A stretch of 15,178 bases of DNA from Promethearchaeota archaeon (GCA_048941015.1 JBHLNZ010000069.1:1-15178); one strand, 5' to 3'; positions 63-10,250 are shown, counted from the stretch's first letter. The notes: a model not told the origin generated them from the sequence alone. Numbers and translations are program-made.

Positions 63-653
63 TTAGAAATCCTCACATTTCTTTCTGAAATATGGCCGCG
101 TATGAGAACAACTTGGACATTTCCAATCTGCTGGTAATTCATCCATTTCTACTTCATAACCACATTCCATACATATCCATACTATCTTTTTTCCTCGTTT
201 AAAGAATGCATCATCACCAACCAATTTTAATAGTTTTCCGTATCGTTGAGCATGATGCTGTTCTGCACGAATAATACCCCTCACTCTCTTAGCAATCTCA
301 GGATACCCTTCTTTTTCTGCAGTATCTACTATATCGGGATATAATTTCGTGTATTCTAAAGTTTCTCCAGCAATTGCAGATTTTAAGTTCTCAAAAGTCG
401 TTCCATGGGTCGTAGGAAATTCAGCATCAGGAATTACTTTCATATCATCGAAATATTCTTCATTTTTAAACTGTTGAAGCATTCTATAATACCAACTACC
501 ATGTTCTTTTTCTTGATTAGCAGTTTCCTCAAATATATTAGCTATCAAAACATATCCTTCACTTTTGGCAATTTGCGAAAAGAAAGTATACCTATTTCTT
601 GCTTGAGACTCACCAACATAAGCCGTATATAATTTCTTTGGAGTTTCTTTCAT
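63..653 (-). CDS. rbr: Rubrerythrin (di-iron four-helix bundle plus C-terminal rubredoxin-like domain)
   Basis: N-terminal AYVGESQARNRYTFF signature, two ExxH motifs (EKEH, EQHH), and C-terminal CMECG...CPSC rubredoxin-like Cys pairs. Confidence 0.95.
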   Translation of the reverse strand: MKETPKKLYTAYVGESQARNRYTFFSQIAKSEGYVLIANIFEETANQEKEHGSWYYRMLQQFKNEEYFDDMKVIPDAEFPTTHGTTFENLKSAIAGETLEYTKLYPDIVDTAEKEGYPEIAKRVRGIIRAEQHHAQRYGKLLKLVGDDAFFKRGKKIVWICMECGYEVEMDELPADWKCPSCSHTRPYFRKKCEDF

Positions 654-830: not shown

Positions 831-3212
831 TTAATCTGTATCGATTTCTGTTGTTACAGGGTAACCTTTTCTATGCCATGCAATCATACCACCTTTTAGA
901 TTTCTGACATCCTTAAATCCTGCTCGAGCTAAAATTTGAGCTGCCATCATTGAACGTGAACCAACATGACATAACACCACTACTTCTTCATCTTTATAAT
1001 CTTCTAAAGTATCAACTTTGTGCATAAGATCTCCTAAAGGCATAAGTTGAGCTTCTTTGATATGTCCTCCTAAACCATGATATTCTTGTGGTGTTCTAAC
1101 ATCAATTATAATTGATGGTTTATCTTCACTTTCAAGTCTTTCATATAATTCATCAGTTGTTATTTCTGACAGAGGAGGTGAATCAGGGGTTCTTAAATCC
1201 TTCCTTCTTTTTAATTTAATTTTAACTGGAGCTTTAACTTCTTCAATTTTAATTGTTTTCTTCTCTAAAATGGCAACTAATTTTCCTTTATCTTTTCCTA
1301 GATTATTTAATTCTACTCCATCTGTTAATTGAGCATATGCTTCTACACTCGCCTTAAAACCTGGATCTGTTGCATAAATTTTCAATTTCTTTCCTTTCGG
1401 TAATATTTCAAGCCCCTTTATCAATGCATTCAATGGTCCAGGACAAGATAAACCAGAAGCATCAATTATATTGTATTCTTCACTTTCTATTGTTTTGCTC
1501 TCAATCATTTCCTCCATTAATTCCTCTGATGGACCACACGCTTCAGCTATTTCTTGAGTAGTCGCTTGGGCAGTTTTAAAGAGTTTGTATCCTCCCGATA
1601 AATTTTTCACGTTTTTAAATCCTTTGAGCATAAGTAATCTTGTAGTATAATATCCCCTATGACCAACCTCACAAAAAATATAAATATCCTTATCTTTTGG
1701 AATCTCATCTAATCTGTCTCTGAGCTCTAAATCGTTAATATTTACAGCATTCTCAATAGATCCTACCCTAAATTCTTCTGGAGTTCTTACATCAAGAAGA
1801 AAACTATTATTATCTTTTATTTTTTCAATATCTTCCCATTGCCATATTGGGTGATCGCCTTTGATTACATTCGATGCTACGTATCCTGCCATATTTATTG
1901 GATCTTTAGCTGATCCATATGGAGGAGCATATGTTAGCTCAAGTTCTTCTAGATCGAATACTGTTCCTCCAAATTTTATTACTGTTGAAATTACATCAAT
2001 TCTTTTTTCTGTTCCAGCACCCCCCACAGCCTGAGCTCCTAATACCTTACCACTAGGAATCTCAAAAAGAAGTTTTAATGTAATTGGTATAGCTCCTGGA
2101 TAATAACCCACATGATTATTTGGATGAATATAAATTTTTTCAAATTTTATATCTAAATTTTTCAATTGTTTTTCATTTAATCCTACAAAAGCTACAGTTA
2201 AATCAAAAACTTTTAATACTGAAGTGCCAAGAATTCCTTTATATTTAGAATCTCTGCCTGCTAAATTATCTGCTGCAATTCTTCCCTGTTTATTCGCAGG
2301 ACCTGCTAAAGGTATTGCAGTAGGTTCTAGTGTCTGAAAATGCTTTACTTGAACAGCATCTCCCACAGCATAAATCGATGGATCTGAAGTTTGCATCTTA
2401 TCATTAACAATTATATGTCCTTTTGGACCGATTTTTAAACCCGCTTCCTTTGCTAAATTACCTTCTGGTTTAACTCCTATTGATAAAATAATCATGTCAG
2501 TTTTAACTTTTTTACCACTTCGAGGTATAACATAGTTACATTTATCAACATCACATTCAAATGAATCAACTGCATCTCCTAATTGCAAACAAACTCCATT
2601 CAAAATTAATTCTTGATGAACAAATTGCGCCATTTCTTTATCTAATGGAGCTAAAACTTGATCAAGCATTTCAACAATTTTTACCTTAATTCCTCGTTCT
2701 TTTAGGTTTTCTGCCATTTCTAAACCAATATACCCCCCTCCAATTATAGTTGCATGTTTCACTTTATTCCTCTCAGCAAAATCTTTAATTTTGACTGAAT
2801 CAGGAATTGTCCTTAACGTAAATGTAGGAACTTGTTCAAGACCTTTAAATGGAGGTATAATTGGAGATGATCCAGGAGATAAAAGAAGATAATCATAATC
2901 TAAACTATACATTCTATTTTGGTCTAAATTCTTAATTGTAATTTCTTTTTTCTCTTTATTAATTGATATTACTTCATGGTTTATCCTGACATCAATATTA
3001 AATCTATTAAAGAATTTTTCTGGAGTCATTAATTCTAACTTTTCGCGATCTTTTATTACCGATCCAACATAATATGGTAAACCACAATTTGCAAAAGAAA
3101 CATATGCCCCCTTCTCAAGAATAATAATTTCAAATTCTTCACTTAATCTTCTTAAACGAGCCGCAGCAGTAGCTCCACCAGCAACACCTCCAACAATAAT
3201 AACTTTCTTCAT
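831..3212 (-). CDS. cdr: CoA-disulfide/persulfide reductase fused to rhodanese, TusA-like and second rhodanese domains
   Basis: FAD motif GGVAGG, SFANC43GLPY redox motif, GGGYIG with acidic VE (NADH-type), YAVGD and YAPPY. Then rhodanese LLDVRTPEEF...FC514EVGHRG, TusA DASGLSC590PGP, and rhodanese IIDVRTPQEY...LC748HVGSRS. RBS-like GAAGGA precedes the ATG. Confidence 0.92.
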   Translation of the reverse strand: MKKVIIVGGVAGGATAAARLRRLSEEFEIIILEKGAYVSFANCGLPYYVGSVIKDREKLELMTPEKFFNRFNIDVRINHEVISINKEKKEITIKNLDQNRMYSLDYDYLLLSPGSSPIIPPFKGLEQVPTFTLRTIPDSVKIKDFAERNKVKHATIIGGGYIGLEMAENLKERGIKVKIVEMLDQVLAPLDKEMAQFVHQELILNGVCLQLGDAVDSFECDVDKCNYVIPRSGKKVKTDMIILSIGVKPEGNLAKEAGLKIGPKGHIIVNDKMQTSDPSIYAVGDAVQVKHFQTLEPTAIPLAGPANKQGRIAADNLAGRDSKYKGILGTSVLKVFDLTVAFVGLNEKQLKNLDIKFEKIYIHPNNHVGYYPGAIPITLKLLFEIPSGKVLGAQAVGGAGTEKRIDVISTVIKFGGTVFDLEELELTYAPPYGSAKDPINMAGYVASNVIKGDHPIWQWEDIEKIKDNNSFLLDVRTPEEFRVGSIENAVNINDLELRDRLDEIPKDKDIYIFCEVGHRGYYTTRLLMLKGFKNVKNLSGGYKLFKTAQATTQEIAEACGPSEELMEEMIESKTIESEEYNIIDASGLSCPGPLNALIKGLEILPKGKKLKIYATDPGFKASVEAYAQLTDGVELNNLGKDKGKLVAILEKKTIKIEEVKAPVKIKLKRRKDLRTPDSPPLSEITTDELYERLESEDKPSIIIDVRTPQEYHGLGGHIKEAQLMPLGDLMHKVDTLEDYKDEEVVVLCHVGSRSMMAAQILARAGFKDVRNLKGGMIAWHRKGYPVTTEIDTD

Positions 3213-3579
3213 AATAATCCTTCATTTTTAAAAGTATTAAATTGTGATTGCTGAGCACACAACTTTCACAACTTTAATTTAATCAATATAAATTAGAATT
3301 TAAAATTCTTGATTATGAATTATTGATTAAAATTTAAACAACATTTAATTAATCCTTAGTTTTAAAGATAAAACTTATTACTTAAAAAATCACATATAAT
3401 ACAGTTTTAATGGATAATAAACTAAAAATAACGACATTTTGTACATGCGTTTATTAAAATAATGCCTTATTAAAATTATCATTGAAATAAGCGATTTTTA
3501 AAATAATTTTAAACCTTCATCTTAATAAATTATTAGAAATAGAACAATTAATAAATTATTTATAATTTTTTTTAAATTT

Positions 3580-4383
3580 TTATCCTCTATAATCAAGAAC
3601 TATGACAACATCAACGTATAACTCGTAATTCTCGTCCTCATCATAATCATGTATTTGGACCTTATCTACCTCGTCCAATTCTCCTTTTACTTCCATAAGT
3701 TCTGATTGTAGTAATATTTTTACTGGAGAATGCTTTAATTGTTTTCTAATTTCAACCGTTCCAGGAATTGATTGAGCAGAAGTCACCACAATTACTCTAC
3801 CCGTATATTTAGTCAACTTTAACGCAAGTTCTAAGGACTTATCTCCCGAATCAACTATTAAAATTCTTTTATCTCGTAGTTCTTCAAGATCTGAGGGAAT
3901 TTCTTTATAAACTCCCTTACCCAGAAATTCATCAATACCTAAAATTACCCTCACATCAAGTTGACACGATGTGGCAATCTCTACATCAGGATTTGCTCCT
4001 GTTCTATAATTATCGATTGCGGCTTTTAAAGCATCTGCGGCTAAATTACTACAATGCATTTTAATGGGTGGTAAACCATCTAATTCGTCAGCAACATCCT
4101 GTCTACTAACTTTATAAGCTTCATCGAGAGGCATTCCTTTAACCATCTCGGTTATCATTGATGACGTGCTTATAGCACTACCACAACCAAACGTCTTAAA
4201 TTTAATGTCATTGATAATTTCCTCGCCTTTATCATTCTTCCCTACTTTAATGTAGATCCACATGAGGTCCCCGCAAACAGGATTACCGACCTTTCCAACA
4301 CCGTCGGCATCCTCTATTTCACCAACATTACGTGGATTTTTAAAATGATCCAATACCTTTTCTGAATATTGAGTTGATTTCAT
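3580..4383 (-). CDS. iscU: IscU/NifU-N Fe-S scaffold fused to a C-terminal degenerate thioredoxin-reductase NADPH-domain-like region
   Basis: YSEKVLDHFKNPRNVG, GNPVCGD, FKTFGCGSA and LPPIKMHCS give all three scaffold Cys. The extra ~125 aa read like the TrxB segment from GxGV to VDxV. RBS GGTGA lies just after the iscS stop. Confidence 0.92.
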   Translation of the reverse strand: MKSTQYSEKVLDHFKNPRNVGEIEDADGVGKVGNPVCGDLMWIYIKVGKNDKGEEIINDIKFKTFGCGSAISTSSMITEMVKGMPLDEAYKVSRQDVADELDGLPPIKMHCSNLAADALKAAIDNYRTGANPDVEIATSCQLDVRVILGIDEFLGKGVYKEIPSDLEELRDKRILIVDSGDKSLELALKLTKYTGRVIVVTSAQSIPGTVEIRKQLKHSPVKILLQSELMEVKGELDEVDKVQIHDYDEDENYELYVDVVIVLDYRG

Positions 4384-4398
4384 ACTTTTATTCTCACC

Positions 4399-5580
4399 TT
4401 ATTTTAATTCTTTTATCATATCAGGAGGCGTTAAAGGAGATAGTTTTCGCAACCTTTTAACTGATTCGGGTAACACTTCGATTAATTTATTTATATCGTA
4501 TTCTTTAGTGGTTCTTCCTAAACTAACCAATAAAGAACCATGAGCTTCTTCATGAAGTAATCCCATAGATATTAGTGTATGTGATGGCTCTAATGTTTTA
4601 GAAGAGCACGCAGAACCTGTTGCAGCAGCAATATTATTTTCTTTTAATGTTAATATCAATGACTCTCCTTCTATATAGTCGAATCTGAAATGTGCATTAT
4701 GCGGTAATCTCTTCTCAGGATGGCCATTCAAATATGAATTAGGAATTTTTTCTAAAACATTTTTTATTAGTTTATCTCTTAGATCTTTAAGATATTCTGC
4801 TTCATTTGGCATTACCCGTTTCATAATTTCTGCCGCTTTAGCAAATCCAACAATTCCAGGGATATTTTCAGATCCTGAACGGAATCCTCTTTCTTGACCT
4901 CCACCTATAATTATTGGATTAACACGTACACCTTTCTTAATGTATAAAGCTCCAACACCCCGCGGTCCATAAATATCATTCGAAGAGAGGGTGACTAAAT
5001 CAATGGGTATCTTTTGTAAATCTAGAGGTATTACACTTTCACTCGCAACAGCGTCAGTATGAAATAAAATCTTTTTCTCTTGAGCTATTTTACTAATTTC
5101 CTCTATTGGTTGTAAAGAGCCAACTTCATTACTCGCCGTCGATATAGATATTAAAATTGTATCATCTTTAATTAGTTTTTCAAGTTTATCTAATCTGACA
5201 ATTCCAAATCTATCAACAGGAAGTCTACTTATTTCAAATCCTTCTTTTTCTAAATGTTTAGCAATGTTTAGAATTGATATGTGCTCAATTTCAGAGATAA
5301 TAATATGATTGCCTTTCCTTTTATAAAAGTTAGAACCTCCCATAAGAGCAAGATTGTTTGATTCAGTAGCTCCAGAAGTAAAAATAATATCGGTAGCATT
5401 TGGTGCATTGACAAAATCTGCAACTTTTTCTCTTGATTTTTCTAATATATCGGTGGCGATATCACCATCACAGTGAAGAGATGCCGGATTAGCAAATTTC
5501 TCATTAAAATATTCCATCATTTCCTTCACAACTCTTTCATCAACTGGTTTAGCTGCCTGATTATCTAAATAGATGCTCAA
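4399..5580 (-). CDS. iscS: IscS/NifS-family cysteine desulfurase homolog lacking the PLP Schiff-base lysine
   Basis: YLDN, NPASLH, FTSGATESNN, EH, GGGQERGFRSGSEN and GSAC325SS. The SAHK motif reads SSND (D202). TTG start 7 nt after GGAGG. Confidence 0.92.
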   Translation of the reverse strand: MSIYLDNQAAKPVDERVVKEMMEYFNEKFANPASLHCDGDIATDILEKSREKVADFVNAPNATDIIFTSGATESNNLALMGGSNFYKRKGNHIIISEIEHISILNIAKHLEKEGFEISRLPVDRFGIVRLDKLEKLIKDDTILISISTASNEVGSLQPIEEISKIAQEKKILFHTDAVASESVIPLDLQKIPIDLVTLSSNDIYGPRGVGALYIKKGVRVNPIIIGGGQERGFRSGSENIPGIVGFAKAAEIMKRVMPNEAEYLKDLRDKLIKNVLEKIPNSYLNGHPEKRLPHNAHFRFDYIEGESLILTLKENNIAAATGSACSSKTLEPSHTLISMGLLHEEAHGSLLVSLGRTTKEYDINKLIEVLPESVKRLRKLSPLTPPDMIKELK

Positions 5581-5641
5581 TTTATTGCCTCCATAATCTA
5601 ATATATCACAATTTTAAATTTTTCTTTAAATAAAATTAAAA

Positions 5642-6001
5642 TCAAAACCATTGAGTAGCATCTACATCTAAAACCAAATCATTTAGGGTTGCAGCTCCAA
5701 CAATTTTAACACCAGGAATAAGATCTACTTTTTCCCAGCCCAACATCCTTTTTGAAGCTTCACAAACCAAGATTTCAATTCCCATCTCCAAGCTTTTATC
5801 AATCATTTCTTTCACACTAGGAAAATCTCCTAATTTCATCTCTTCTGCCACACCAGGTTTTAATATCTTCAGGCCCATACCTAAATAATAAAGTGTTGCT
5901 TTGATGTTCATAGTCTTAGCGGTTTGTGCTAAAACCAATGGAGAATATTGTCGTTCGGGTATATCACTAGTTTGAACATATAAAATATGTTTTTCTTCCA
6001 T
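5642..6001 (-). CDS. DsrE/DsrF-family sulfur-relay protein
   Basis: 119 aa with the family pattern (LAQTA...YYLGMGLKIL...GIEILVCEAS...GVKIVGAATL...WF). It has a single conserved-position Cys and starts 13 nt downstream of tusA. Confidence 0.85.
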   Translation of the reverse strand: MEEKHILYVQTSDIPERQYSPLVLAQTAKTMNIKATLYYLGMGLKILKPGVAEEMKLGDFPSVKEMIDKSLEMGIEILVCEASKRMLGWEKVDLIPGVKIVGAATLNDLVLDVDATQWF

Positions 6002-6014
6002 AATTTTTCGTCTC

Positions 6015-6269
6015 TTATTGTTTTTTCTTAAAGTAAAATACTAAATCGTCGCCATCTTTATGAAATTCTACTAATTCCGTATCTGTCCTTTTTGCCCATC
6101 TTTTTAAATCCTCTTCAGCTGCTGGATCATCGGCTAAAACCTTAAAGCATTGACCAACTTCAAGAGTTTCTGAAAAATTTCGAACTTCAAAAAGTGGTTC
6201 TGGGCAATACAAACCACGAGTATCTATTTCCTCCTCATATTCAATTTCTTTACCTTTTTCACTACTCAA
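6015..6269 (-). CDS. tusA: TusA/SirA-family sulfurtransferase
   Basis: IDTRGLYCPEP (CPxP) and VLADDPAAEEDLKRWA. TTG start 8 nt after GGAGG. Confidence 0.93.
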   Translation of the reverse strand: MSSEKGKEIEYEEEIDTRGLYCPEPLFEVRNFSETLEVGQCFKVLADDPAAEEDLKRWAKRTDTELVEFHKDGDDLVFYFKKKQ

Positions 6270-6500
6270 AAATAAAACCTCCTTGTTTTTAAAATTATTT
6301 ATAACAAATTTTTATTAGATTCTAATTTCAATATATTAACGACACAAAAAAGAATTAAATATTCTGATTATAATTTAATCAAAAATATATATTGACAAAA
6401 GCTTAGAATTAAACTACTTTTAAAGTTATATTATAAATTATAAATCACCTTTAAATTGAAACCAAGAAGGCAATTTTTTAATCAGAAAAAATAAAAGTAT

Positions 6501-6509: not shown

Positions 6510-7145
6510 CTACATACCAGCTAATTGCTTTATGTGTTTAACTCCATCTACTGCATCCTCCGCGAAATCATCAGCTCCAAGTCTTTTAGCTAGCTCCATA
6601 TTTAAGGGAGCACCACCTACAATCAATTTCACATTATCTCTAATACCTGCTTCTTTAAGAGCTTCGTGTACAACTTTAATTTGTTCAACAGTCATCGTTA
6701 AAAGCGAACTTAATGCTATAATCTCCGCTCCTGTTTCTTTAACTTTTTCTACAATTATATTCTCATCTACATCCATTCCTAAATCATGTAATTCAAATCC
6801 TGAACTCAATAATAATGAACCTAAAATATTCTTTCCGATATCATGGTTATCTCCCTTAACGGTTGCTAATATAATTTTAACTTTATCTTGAGATTTATCA
6901 ACAGCTGCTAAAGCTGGTTGAAGGATCTTAAATGCTTCCTTCATAGTTTCTCCTGCCAAAACTAATTCTGTGAGATAATATTCTTTTTCCTCATATCTTT
7001 TCCCAACTTCATCCATCCCTTTTGTTAAAGCATTTAAAATGTTGAATGGATCCTTATGATCTCCTTCTAAGGCTTCCTTTACTGCATCTGCTATATCATC
7101 CACTTCTAATTCTATTATCAATTCTGTTAACTTTTCAAAATCCAT
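6510..7145 (-). CDS. Corrinoid (cobalamin-binding) protein, MtaC/MttC/MetH cap+B12 domain type
   Basis: Cap domain (ALTKGMDEVGKRYEEKEYYLTELVLAGETM), DxHxxG motif (GDNHDIGKNI), SSLLT and VGGAP. Confidence 0.93.
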   Translation of the reverse strand: MDFEKLTELIIELEVDDIADAVKEALEGDHKDPFNILNALTKGMDEVGKRYEEKEYYLTELVLAGETMKEAFKILQPALAAVDKSQDKVKIILATVKGDNHDIGKNILGSLLLSSGFELHDLGMDVDENIIVEKVKETGAEIIALSSLLTMTVEQIKVVHEALKEAGIRDNVKLIVGGAPLNMELAKRLGADDFAEDAVDGVKHIKQLAGM

Positions 7146-7548: not shown

Positions 7549-8304
7549 ATGGAAAAAGAATTTTTAGAAGAAGTACGAGAATTAGGAGATAAAGAAATAC
7601 TTGAGGAGATAAAAAGAGACAATCTTGTTATTTATGCAGAAGATCTTGTAAAAGATTATGAGATTGGAGAATTCATTGTTAGGGCAGTAGATCATGTTTC
7701 ATTAAAGATTAAAGAAAGCGATTTTATTGTAATAAAAGGACCATCAGGAGCAGGTAAAACTACTTTATTAAATTTAATTGGTGGATTAGATTCTCCAAAT
7801 TCTGGTTTAGTCTTTACTAATGGTGTAAAAATTACAAATATGGAAGAAGAATCTCTAGCAACTTTTCGATTATTTAATACTGGTTTTGTATTTCAAAATT
7901 ATAATCTTATCAGCACATTAACAGCTGAAGAAAATGTAATGTTTCCTTTGAGTCTAGCTGGAATGCATGTCCAAGATCAGAGAGAAAAATCTGTCACACT
8001 ATTAAGAAAAATTGGTCTTGGTGACAGACGTGAACATCTCCCATTTCAATTATCAGCAGGTGAACAACAAAGAGTAGCAATTGCCCGTGCATTAGCTAAC
8101 AATCCTCCTATTATTTTAGCAGATGAACCAACTGCTAATTTAGATAAGAATTCAAGTATTTTAATAAGAGATCTATTTAAAGAAATGAAGGAGGAACAAA
8201 GAACGGTAATTATCGCAACTCATGATGACTATTTGATAGAATTAGCAACTAGAGTATTTGAATTTGAAAATGCTAAAATTCTAAAAGAAACTATTATAAA
8301 TTAA
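7549..8304 (+). CDS. ABC transporter ATP-binding protein, LolD/MacB/SalX family
   Basis: Walker A GPSGAGKT, GFVFQNYNL Q-loop, LSAGEQQRVAIARAL signature, ILADEPTANLD Walker B/D-loop and ATHD H-loop. It carries a ~25-aa acidic N-terminal extension. Confidence 0.95.
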   Translation: MEKEFLEEVRELGDKEILEEIKRDNLVIYAEDLVKDYEIGEFIVRAVDHVSLKIKESDFIVIKGPSGAGKTTLLNLIGGLDSPNSGLVFTNGVKITNMEEESLATFRLFNTGFVFQNYNLISTLTAEENVMFPLSLAGMHVQDQREKSVTLLRKIGLGDRREHLPFQLSAGEQQRVAIARALANNPPIILADEPTANLDKNSSILIRDLFKEMKEEQRTVIIATHDDYLIELATRVFEFENAKILKETIIN

Positions 8305-8339
8305 AAAAATATATCCGAAAACTGTAAGGTGTTAATCAG

Positions 8340-10250
8340 ATTTCATTAAATTTTGCACTTAAAGATTTTTATAGGAAAAAAGAAATATCAATTCCTTATG
8401 TATTGATGATTAGTTTAGTTATAGCTTTATCAACCTTCTTAATTTATTTTACTTCTTCAATAGGATTAAATTCTTTTATTCAATATGATTATAGTAATAT
8501 TTTTTATTTTACAGGCGGAATTAGTTTAATTTATTTCAATTTTAATACATTGATTATAAGTCTTGTTTTGATATTAGCATTTATTGTGGTTATTGTAATC
8601 ACGAGTACTTTAATCCTTAATAAGAGGAGAGATATTGCTATTATGAAATCATTAGGCACACTTCCAGGTAAACTATATAACTATTATTTAACAGAAGCTT
8701 ATATTATGTATTTTATAGGTTTTCTGTTAGGATTTCTTTTAGGTTTAATTTCTTATGGAATTTCAGGACTTTTACTTAGATTATTAGGATTTTCTGTTTA
8801 CTTTTTTATCGATCTACTTTATACACCAATTCTATTCTTTTCTTGTATGGGTGGCATTTTTATCGTTCCTGGATACATTTTAAGAAGAATTGGAAATCAA
8901 AAAACAGTAAAGACATTTTCAAAAGACATTCCTTATAACTATGATGCTTCTAAAGGACTATCCTTTATTCCTAAATGGATCTCATTGATCAGCCTTAACT
9001 TCAAAACATCCGTTATTAATACTATTAGAAGGAAAGGAGAATTTAAACGGTATATGATAGTTTTTTCGATCATTTCAGTCATAATATTTACTTTAAGTAT
9101 AGGAATATTTGTATTAAATAGTTCTTCACAACAATGGATTAGAAAATCCCAAGGAGAGAATATTTTAGCAATTGGGCATAAGGATGTAATTGAAAATTAC
9201 GCTTTAATGTATTCTATGTTTTCAGATCCTACTCTTATGATCAATGGTGATGAGATAGATTTGTTGGACTCACAATATCTATTTAATTTCTCTAATATTG
9301 ATGATTTAGGAGATTTATCTGATATAAAAACAATTGATCAAAGATTAATTAGTTTTTTCAATGCTGAAGAATTAGATGGATATCACTACTATGAAACTTC
9401 AGGTTATATTATCGTAGGACAGCAAAGAACAGGAATATTTCCTGTAGTTGGGGTAAATACTAGTGAACTTATCCAAAATTTTGAAATTGATGGTACTTAT
9501 TTTAATGATTCTGATGCTGACATAAATATGTTAATAGGAGATGGTTTAGCTTATAATTTCTTCGATTATGCTTTTGATCAAAGTATACGATTTTATGATC
9601 TTAATCATACTTTTCACATCTCAGGAGTAGCGATAGATAGTCTGTATAGTGGTTATTCCGGATATATCGATATTGATGTCATGAGAGAAGATTTAAACCT
9701 TACTAATCAAGAAGTAAACTTAATTTTGATCGAACTTAACTCTAATCCATCCTCTGTAATCGAAAATGAATTAAGTACCATTATTACTTCAAATCTTGGA
9801 AACAACTTTACATATATAGCTTTAGATTCGATATTTGACAAAAATCTTCAACATATTTCGAATTTAACTTTATATCCTGCTATATTGGTTTTCATAATGG
9901 GAGTAATTTCGATTCTTTCTCTCTATAACTATCAAAAGGGGGGAATTTTAGAAAAATCAAAAGATTTCTTAATTCAAAGAGCGATTGGCTCCAAGTATAA
10001 ATATATTAAACGAATATTGTTCTTAGAAGCGTTATACGTGATTGTACCTTCTTTGTCCTTGAGTTTAGGAATAGGAATGATACTAAATTCAATTGTTTTA
10101 TTTGAAAGAGCTTATTTACCACCTCTTTACATTCCTTTAATAATTTTTGGATTTACTTTTATTTCTTTTATTTGCTTCAATTATATTAGTCTTATCCCTA
10201 TTATGAAGAAGATTAAAAAATTTAATATTAAAGATTTTGTAATCTTCTAA
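8340..10250 (+). CDS. FtsX/MacB-family ABC permease with two tandem permease halves (ORF track start 8403; proposed ATT start 8340)
   Basis: About 8 hydrophobic segments, KRRDIAIMKSLG and KSKDFLIQRAIG FtsX-type motifs, and a large hydrophilic extracytoplasmic domain in the second half. The frame is open from 8328 and encodes ISLNFALKDFYRKK before the called start. Confidence 0.88.
   Translation: MSLNFALKDFYRKKEISIPYVLMISLVIALSTFLIYFTSSIGLNSFIQYDYSNIFYFTGGISLIYFNFNTLIISLVLILAFIVVIVITSTLILNKRRDIAIMKSLGTLPGKLYNYYLTEAYIMYFIGFLLGFLLGLISYGISGLLLRLLGFSVYFFIDLLYTPILFFSCMGGIFIVPGYILRRIGNQKTVKTFSKDIPYNYDASKGLSFIPKWISLISLNFKTSVINTIRRKGEFKRYMIVFSIISVIIFTLSIGIFVLNSSSQQWIRKSQGENILAIGHKDVIENYALMYSMFSDPTLMINGDEIDLLDSQYLFNFSNIDDLGDLSDIKTIDQRLISFFNAEELDGYHYYETSGYIIVGQQRTGIFPVVGVNTSELIQNFEIDGTYFNDSDADINMLIGDGLAYNFFDYAFDQSIRFYDLNHTFHISGVAIDSLYSGYSGYIDIDVMREDLNLTNQEVNLILIELNSNPSSVIENELSTIITSNLGNNFTYIALDSIFDKNLQHISNLTLYPAILVFIMGVISILSLYNYQKGGILEKSKDFLIQRAIGSKYKYIKRILFLEALYVIVPSLSLSLGIGMILNSIVLFERAYLPPLYIPLIIFGFTFISFICFNYISLIPIMKKIKKFNIKDFVIF

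Follow-up and report, generated by a model that had tools for sequence, protein, structure and literature searches.

A conserved Asgard archaeal operon that sets the sulfur carriers TusA and DsrE beside a lysine-less IscS and an IscU fusion

A 15,178-nucleotide stretch of DNA from a Promethearchaeota archaeon (GCA_048941015.1 JBHLNZ010000069.1:1-15178), hereafter the window, was found to carry a run of genes for sulfur transfer and iron-sulfur (Fe-S) cluster assembly. The window is contig C8 of an Asgard (Lokiarchaeia-type) genome assembly of 3.59 Mb that is 95% complete, and the closest relatives of its IscS come from metagenome-assembled genomes labelled Hodarchaeota, Heimdallarchaeota or Promethearchaeota. 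At its centre are four genes, tusA, dsrE, iscS and iscU, the third of which encodes a class I IscS/NifS homologue without the lysine that binds pyridoxal 5'-phosphate (PLP). We refer to this protein as IscS*, to lysine-bearing IscS as HK-type, and to the IscS*/TusA/DsrE/IscU set as the cassette (Table 1). Open reading frame (ORF) calls agreed with the original prediction, made from the DNA alone, that the four genes are co-oriented with gaps of 13, 61 and 15 nt, and the four-gene unit is real. They agreed equally, together with Pfam and NCBIfam profiles, on a CoA-disulfide reductase (CoADR) gene 367 nt further on that adds rhodanese (RHD), TusA and rhodanese domains; the gap from there to the rubrerythrin gene is 177 nt. 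The domains of all listed proteins were confirmed by the same profiles, Shine-Dalgarno-like GGAGG-type sequences precede both TTG starts, and the intergenic DNA of the window is about 75% A+T. The unit is the sole IscS-IscU operon of the source genome, in which the HK-type IscS and two other IscU genes are orphans.

Table 1. Genes, domains and upstream elements in the window (aa, amino acids; TrxR, thioredoxin reductase)
Feature	Position	Strand	Description
tusA	6015-6269	-	84 aa; sulfur carrier, CPxP Cys22; TTG start 3' of AAGGAGG
dsrE	5642-6001	-	119 aa; DsrE-family sulfur carrier, single Cys80
iscS*	4399-5580	-	393 aa; N201/D202, Q->A in DAVAS, loop Cys325 present
iscU fusion	3580-4383	-	267 aa
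IscU scaffold domain, residues 1-130	3994-4383	-	C37, D39, C67, H110, C111
C-terminal domain of IscU fusion	3583-3945	-	predicted TrxR NADPH-domain / TrxR-like FNR fold
CoADR-RHD-TusA-RHD flavoprotein	831-3212	-	793 aa; C43, C514, C590, C748
rubrerythrin	63-653	-	downstream neighbour; NF045767 205.8 bits, cut-off 200
conserved upstream element, candidate promoter or operator	6352-6381	-	~100 nt 5' of tusA start
element 5' of CoADR gene	3296-3324	-	like the tusA element if 1-nt indels are permitted; local alignment
corrinoid (B12-binding, MtbC-like) protein gene	6510-7145	-	upstream of tusA; then T-run

The translation of IscS* bore out the prediction that the PLP lysine is gone but the mobile-loop cysteine is kept. 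Its motif reads LSSNDIYGP, with N201/D202 in place of the His-Lys of SxHK, DAVAS stands where DAxQS is expected, and Cys325, retained in GSACSS, is invariant in the family alignment. As SSN[DE] or SAND recurs at 74 related loci, these changes are not sequencing errors. The protein scored 261 bits against Aminotran_5 and 463 bits against TIGR03402, under the NifS equivalog cut-off of 530.75, and its top match in the PDB was Archaeoglobus fulgidus IscS2 (4EB5/4EB7/4HVK; E 4.9e-133), which has the same SSNDIYGP motif. According to a passage of PMC7585200 that cites Marinoni 2012, Yamanaka 2013 and Pagnier 2014, A. fulgidus IscS2 has no desulfurase activity and supplies a cysteine ligand to the [2Fe-2S] cluster of IscU; the same passage (refs 46-48) gives it as PLP-free, and M. 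acetivorans IscS1 likewise is without the lysine (PMC7585200). IscS* fits this type by family, by the Asp at the Schiff-base site, by its loop Cys and by the adjoining iscU, and by analogy we infer that it is PLP-free and inactive as a desulfurase. The role of docking or ligand subunit first proposed for it would be that of A. fulgidus IscS2, and since such a role has been reported for the latter, the idea itself counts as known.

In a phylogenetic tree, IscS* grouped in a clade made up purely of lysine-less proteins (SH-aLRT 97; 16 of 80 tree rows), and a second lysine-less clade lay elsewhere when the tree was unconstrained. The approximately unbiased (AU) test did not reject a single lysine-less clade (p 0.598), and the constrained tree had the higher likelihood. 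An argument from independent origins of lysine loss and convergent linkage was dropped after this result, and an independent-pairs test comprised just 2-3 pairs and hence had no power.

IscU was likewise found, as predicted, to keep all three cluster cysteines, C37, C67 and C111, in both translation and alignment; these and residues D39 and H110 are invariant among 25 aligned sequences. The scaffold domain scored 161.8 bits against NifU_N and 195.9 bits against TIGR03419 (cut-off 187.9), and Foldseek matched it to IscU structures including 4EB5 chain C. In 67/67 Asgard loci a well-conserved C-terminal region of ~120 residues is fused to it in one ORF, and the AlphaFold2 (AF2) model of the window's fusion (pLDDT 81.5) has a disordered linker at residues 133-146. 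The C-terminal region gave Foldseek matches to 2q0l, 3lzw and 2zbw (E ~1e-10 over ~127 columns) and sequence matches to TrxR at 1e-7, with PF00070 at 21.1, under the cut-off of 22. It contains neither the FAD domain nor the CxxC of low-Mr thioredoxin reductases, its Gly-rich loop is degenerate (DSGDKS), and the model suggests a conserved pseudo-enzyme domain with the TrxR NADPH fold. In Methanomassiliicoccaceae, the IscU gene beside an HK-type IscS has a ~379-aa in-frame intein (L083:7166-8680; also L086 and L087) with a LAGLIDADG-type endonuclease, inserted exactly before the first cluster-ligand Cys (GNPV/CLVSGT...TTHN/CGDMM).

TusA scored 67.5 bits against the Pfam TusA profile (cut-off 28.6) and 45.7 bits against the E. 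coli TusA equivalog, under its cut-off of 78, and its C22, P23 and P25 are invariant in 68/68 orthologues. DsrE scored 45 bits against PF02635 (DsrE; cut-off 22.7) and 53 bits against DrsE_2, was assigned to no subgroup (33.7 bits against NCBIfam DsrE2, far under its cut-off of 210), and has a Cys80 that is invariant in 36/36 orthologues. Taken with the CoADR fusion, the carrier cysteines (TusA C22; DsrE C80; CoADR C43, C514, C590 and C748) are each invariant in 36-68 orthologues. The source genome has only one other TusA, within a ThiF-TusA-PP-loop operon (L114, G000 contig C123) whose PP-loop gene is ThiI/MnmA-like with an NFACT-R domain, and its remaining DsrE genes make up a DsrE-DsrF-DsrH trio (L119, G000 contig C51). 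Both sets are probably thiolation relays apart from the carriers in the window. Because the other TusA and DsrE genes of the genome belong to these ThiF/PP-loop and DsrEFH-type sets, the pair in the window is dedicated to its operon. A selenium function was considered and rejected: the match of TusA to YedF is weak, the operon is without genes for SelD, YedE or a selenocysteine lyase, and a selenium lyase role is excluded for IscS* because a lysine-less enzyme cannot act as a lyase.

We then surveyed the linkage of the carriers to IscS* in four samples: genome contigs, distant representatives of 50% clusters, metagenome loci, and Asgard genomes with a single class I gene. The genome-contig sample comprised 80 loci, 74 of them lysine-less (SSND 69 including the window, SSNE 5, SAND 1). 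Among the lysine-less loci with enough flanking DNA, to which the counts are restricted, TusA was upstream in 65/67, DsrE was present in 35/67 and IscU was downstream in 67/67, whereas at the six HK-type loci, from Methanomassiliicoccales and relatives, IscU was present without a carrier (0/6). The metagenome loci, also 80 and separate from the genome contigs, had TusA at 8 of 9 informative lysine-less loci, 7 of those 8 having DsrE as well, and TusA or DsrE at 0 of ~66 HK-type loci. In the 20 Asgard genomes with one class I gene, TusA adjoined 14 of the 15 lysine-less genes versus 0 of the 5 HK-type genes. Over three of the samples, TusA or DsrE stood beside nearly every lysine-less IscS with sufficient flanking DNA and beside 0 of ~85 lysine-bearing relatives.

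The distant representatives, which included no Archaeoglobus protein, extended the linkage further. TusA adjoins P0127 (SSND), the order TusA-DsrE-IscS*-IscU recurs at P0128 (SANS) and P0130 (SSSA), P0169 has IscS*-DsrE-TusA without IscU, and DsrE-family genes are present at P0272; the HK-type P0129 and P0132 have no carrier at the locus. A second order, IscS*-IscU-DsrE-TusA, was found in 6 of the 8 carrier-linked metagenome loci, and the existence of two orders therefore indicates that the linkage outlasted rearrangement. These results demonstrate that the linkage of tusA/dsrE to SSND-type iscS, which the original prediction had put forward as the point to survey, is strongly conserved and specific, and that it reaches deep, down to ~40-50% identity and in two gene orders. 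The accompanying expectation for the CoADR gene (cdr) was not borne out in the same way, since this gene is missing outside the Lokiarchaeia-type loci. In keeping with the earlier remark that the combination was not known to have been described as a unit, no account of a TusA/DsrE-IscS*-IscU operon was found in the searchable literature, from which subscription papers are excluded.

Some individual cassettes deserve mention in their own right. A complete cassette of the Asgard type, with the IscU fusion among its genes, was found at L079, on a contig labelled Candidatus Deferrimicrobium, a bacterium. The IscS of this locus clusters with a sequence from Helarchaeota (SH-aLRT 96), and the contig is either mis-binned or the product of a recent transfer. 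Around the metagenome cassettes L147, L157, L163 and L142, all in the order IscS*-IscU-DsrE-TusA, the flanking genes are hemerythrin-like, rubrerythrin-like, Fe/Mn superoxide dismutase (SOD), flavin reductase-rubredoxin and NifU C-terminal-domain genes, a setting reminiscent of the Asgard cassette with its nearby rubrerythrin and OsmC genes.

Whether the cassette stands alone as a source of sulfur can be judged from the desulfurases encoded alongside it. A search of the source genome for a lysine-containing desulfurase or SUF/SMS genes, as had been advised, found a normal IscS on contig C71 (SASAHKIYGP and DAVQ) and a SufB-like SMS gene. Five further Asgard genomes have one HK and one lysine-less copy each, the motif being read directly in 4 of the 5 (the copy at L106 failed to fit the search pattern), and about 30 of 34 genomes in the window's family have both copies, as judged by identity bands only. 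In 15 Asgard genomes the sole class I gene is the lysine-less one; five such genomes were searched, and each has a SufS-like enzyme (HK, RSGxHC) that scored 358-416 bits against TIGR01979. No cassette genome without a lysine-bearing desulfurase was seen among the ten other Asgard genomes examined in detail. In G017 and G028 (L207 and L208), a SufS-like class II desulfurase with Lys and Cys intact lies directly downstream of TusA-DsrE-IscS*, in clusters where IscU was not detected, and at L098 a SufS-like gene comes after IscS*-IscU. The description of the module as "cysteine-independent" is not supported by this gene content. Since lysine-bearing desulfurases are present in the genomes checked, the charging of TusA/DsrE by a desulfurase in trans is at least as likely as their charging by environmental sulfur.

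On the basis of the conserved and specific gene linkage, we propose that a scaffold of dead IscS and IscU receives persulfide sulfur from TusA and DsrE, and we put the probability of this explanation as a whole at roughly 0.55; the direction of sulfur flow and the sulfur source are the parts that we only infer. The tusA-dsrE-iscS*-iscU genes would form a single operon, and their products an Fe-S assembly unit of the same type as A. fulgidus IscS2-IscU (minimal ISC/MIS). IscS*, unable to make persulfide because the PLP lysine is absent, would be a dimeric platform for IscU, with Cys325 serving, as the A. fulgidus homologue suggests, as sulfur acceptor or cluster ligand. Sulfur would be delivered to the complex as protein-bound persulfide on Cys22 of the dedicated TusA and Cys80 of DsrE. 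The first donor would most likely be a separate PLP-dependent desulfurase in trans, here the orphan HK-type IscS on C71 and in other lineages a SufS-like donor, sometimes within the cassette; sulfane sulfur or polysulfide would be a second possible entry. The CoADR-RHD-TusA-RHD protein, perhaps co-regulated, would be a persulfide reductase using NAD(P)H, as CoAPR and Npsr are; it may act on persulfide bound to the carriers, reducing it to sulfide, or keep sulfane sulfur from building up to excess. The close gene spacing, the likeness to IscS2, the linkage in four samples, the invariant cysteines and the dedicated carriers all support the proposal, as do the persistence of the linkage in two gene orders, the absence of a second IscS-IscU operon from the genome and the lysine-bearing desulfurases of every genome checked.

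Several observations count against this proposal. About half of the Asgard cassettes have no DsrE, and no carrier was found near the lysine-less distant representatives P0147 and P0189 or near L203. The P0169 locus is without IscU, and the partnership of the carriers with IscS* may therefore not be Fe-S-specific. A single old family may underlie both lysine-less clades, so that the TusA/DsrE linkage may have arisen only once or twice. Free sulfide is moreover taken to be the sulfur source in the published account of A. fulgidus (PMC7585200), and with such a source no relay would be needed.

This last point leads to an alternative in which free sulfide feeds IscS*-IscU, and TusA/DsrE export sulfur to thiolation, buffer sulfane sulfur or regulate the complex. 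It agrees with the interpretation of the A. fulgidus proteins (PMC7585200) and with sulfide use by methanogens (PMC13066941), and would accommodate both the P0169-type loci, with IscS*-DsrE-TusA and no IscU, and the half of the cassettes that do without DsrE. However, a dead IscS cannot charge TusA, and outward sulfur flow therefore has no evident source; the genome also has its TusA/ThiF/PP-loop and DsrEFH sets for thiolation already. The carriers, furthermore, occur only beside lysine-less IscS and never beside an active IscS-IscU pair, contrary to the pattern that ordinary acceptors of IscS sulfur should show. We regard this alternative as rather unlikely.

The other alternatives turn on the CoADR gene and its surroundings. 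Residues 1-550 of the CoADR-RHD-TusA-RHD protein match Bacillus anthracis CoADR-RHD (3ICR, E 1.2e-195), Shewanella Npsr (3NTA) and Enterococcus faecalis CoA-persulfide reductase (CoAPR; 8A56, E 2.6e-151, residues 1-549). The protein scored 404 bits against NF010037 (cut-off 394), and the Cys43 and rhodanese C514 expected of CoADR-RHD are in place; it is a relative of the known CoA-persulfide reductases. In 41/51 Lokiarchaeia-type loci (80%) the gene is no further than 6 kb from iscU, the spacing being 130-3200 nt. This frequency resembles that of unrelated neighbours, namely rubrerythrin downstream in 38/51 loci (75%) and the corrinoid gene upstream of tusA in 45/64 (70%), the latter with no evident functional tie to the cassette. 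No CoADR gene was found near the cassette in Helarchaeota, in Sigynarchaeum or in any of the non-Asgard and metagenome loci examined. Genes inserted between iscU and CoADR include HdrD-like, OsmC-like, GSDH (glucose/sorbosone dehydrogenase-family), GNAT acetyltransferase-family and transporter genes. At L050, for example, an HdrD-like gene (8031-9164, -; 4Fe-4S dicluster and two CCG domains) is followed by an OsmC-like gene (9277-9831, +), and L046, L048, L054 and L061 are similar. We treat the CoADR fusion as a lineage-specific neighbour, not a core part; its gene is probably transcribed on its own and possibly co-regulated with the operon.

A hint of such co-regulation comes from the upstream DNA. 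A conserved element of ~30 nt, the TAAATTATAAT element, lies 60-130 nt 5' of tusA (L009-L076) and includes the palindrome ATTATAAT; its consensus is yTAAATTATAATgAGAAtATTTA, a second copy is sometimes present ~60 nt further upstream, and it could be a promoter or operator. The matrix built on it exceeded 9 bits in 61/62 tusA upstream regions and in 14/52 CoADR upstream regions, compared with 0/43 for rubrerythrin and 0/45 for the corrinoid gene (0/88 for these controls together). In the window, the tusA and CoADR upstream regions aligned with a score of 47 against 33.4 +/- 4.9 for shuffles, 11 of 500 shuffles reaching that score (p ~0.02); the CoADR element itself scored just 0.3 bits on the ungapped tusA matrix. 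No regulator of the MarR, CsoR or ArsR type adjoining the CoADR gene was seen in the window. A functional tie of CoADR to the cassette has two points in its favour, the existence of a bacterial CoADR-RHD-TusA-DsrE fusion and the related upstream elements.

The cysteine-independent route of the original prediction would run from environmental sulfide or polysulfide through CoADR-RHD-TusA-RHD to TusA/DsrE and on to Cys325 of IscS* and IscU. In its favour, all four redox or carrier cysteines of the CoADR fusion are invariant, the gene is near iscU in four-fifths of the Lokiarchaeia-type loci, and a related element precedes tusA and the CoADR gene and none of the control genes. The one-polypeptide bacterial CoADR-RHD-TusA-DsrE shows that reductases of this kind operate together with TusA/DsrE carriers (PMC6158253), and polysulfide loads bacterial TusA and DsrE3 in vitro (PMC11094781). 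Against it stand the HK-type IscS of the source genome and the lysine-bearing desulfurases of all other genomes checked. As for the CoADR fusion as feeder, its linkage to the cassette held, but the feeding role came out weak: the linkage is lineage-restricted and no more constant than that of unrelated neighbours, unrelated genes lie between CoADR and iscU in many loci, and the solved relatives, being persulfide or CoA-disulfide reductases, consume persulfide. Taken together, we find this route doubtful.

An oxidative or reactive-sulfur stress island, in which the cassette would serve Fe-S assembly or repair at times of stress with rubrerythrin, OsmC, HdrD-like and CoADR proteins and the housekeeping route would be SMS, seems improbable to us: it draws on the downstream rubrerythrin, the OsmC-like and HdrD-like genes before the CoADR gene in several loci, the hemerythrin, rubrerythrin, Fe/Mn SOD and flavin reductase-rubredoxin genes flanking L147, L157 and L163, the place of the B. 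fragilis CoADR-RHD-TusA-DsrE gene in the oxygen response (PMC6158253) and the SufB-like SMS gene of the source genome, but the flanking genes vary, the counts are small, and it concerns the timing of use, not sulfur acquisition, and is compatible with our proposal.

A broader view can be taken in which the cassette represents an ancient, widespread anaerobe branch of ISC/MIS, with PLP chemistry replaced by a TusA/DsrE relay, the CoADR fusion feeding or reducing sulfur in Lokiarchaeia, and clusters made without cysteine. We hold this to be a tentative possibility with the odds against it. If true, it would identify the proteins, long sought, through which sulfur not derived from cysteine enters Fe-S biogenesis in archaea, the factors directing sulfide to the archaeal machinery having been called unknown (PMC7585200), and would allow clusters to be synthesized from sulfane sulfur or sulfide without cysteine. 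As nearly all Lokiarchaeia-type Asgard genomes have the cassette, it bears in any case on the Fe-S machinery of the archaeal ancestor of eukaryotes.

Among known systems, the A. fulgidus IscS2-IscU pair (AF0564 complex; 4EB5, 4EB7, 4HVK; D199K variant 4R5F) is similar in its SSNDIYGP motif with Asp at the Schiff-base site, in the Ala that replaces the PLP-contacting Gln, in the loop Cys, and in an adjoining IscU with three Cys, Asp and His; A. fulgidus IscU is among the best matches of the window's IscU. In contrast to that pair, the window's IscU has the predicted TrxR-NADPH-like C-terminal domain; here dedicated tusA and dsrE genes precede the two. The MIS system (MisS/MisU) is likewise an archaeal or anaerobe pair of IscS-like and IscU-like proteins in an operon without HscAB, Fdx or IscA genes; a review states that it has no further components and that its electron donor is unknown (PMC13066941). 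The cassette adds two carriers to it, its MisS-like member is catalytically dead, and with TusA and often DsrE as conserved operon members it falls outside the two-component definition of MIS.

The carriers themselves resemble those of E. coli IscS-TusA (3LVJ), M. cuprina DsrE3A-TusA (PMC4175335) and the sHdr-associated TusA/DsrE3 (PMC11094781) in family, in active-site Cys and in the hand-over of persulfide between TusA and DsrE-type proteins. The operon in the window, however, is without sHdr, Dsr or tRNA-thiolation genes. In E. coli, sulfur goes from an active IscS to TusA, whereas IscS* would make no persulfide; either sulfur would therefore flow toward IscS*, or IscS* and TusA would be merely docked. 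The CoADR fusion aligns end to end over residues 1-550 with CoADR-RHD, Npsr and CoAPR (3ICR; S. loihica 3NTA; 8A56; E 1e-195 to 1e-151), sharing Cys43 and the rhodanese Cys. It shares a TusA domain after CoADR-RHD with B. fragilis CoADR-RHD-TusA-DsrE (BF638R_0572), a part of the thiol/oxidative-stress and oxygen response (PMC6158253), but it ends in a second rhodanese where the B. fragilis protein has DsrE, and DsrE here is a free-standing gene nearby. What is known, therefore, is the A. fulgidus-type dead IscS-IscU pair, or MIS, and what is new, within the literature searched, is the presence of dedicated TusA/DsrE carriers. The A. fulgidus IscS2-IscU structures presented a dead desulfurase as a ligand and left its sulfur source unexplained; the operon link described here names TusA and DsrE as two candidate sulfur donors.

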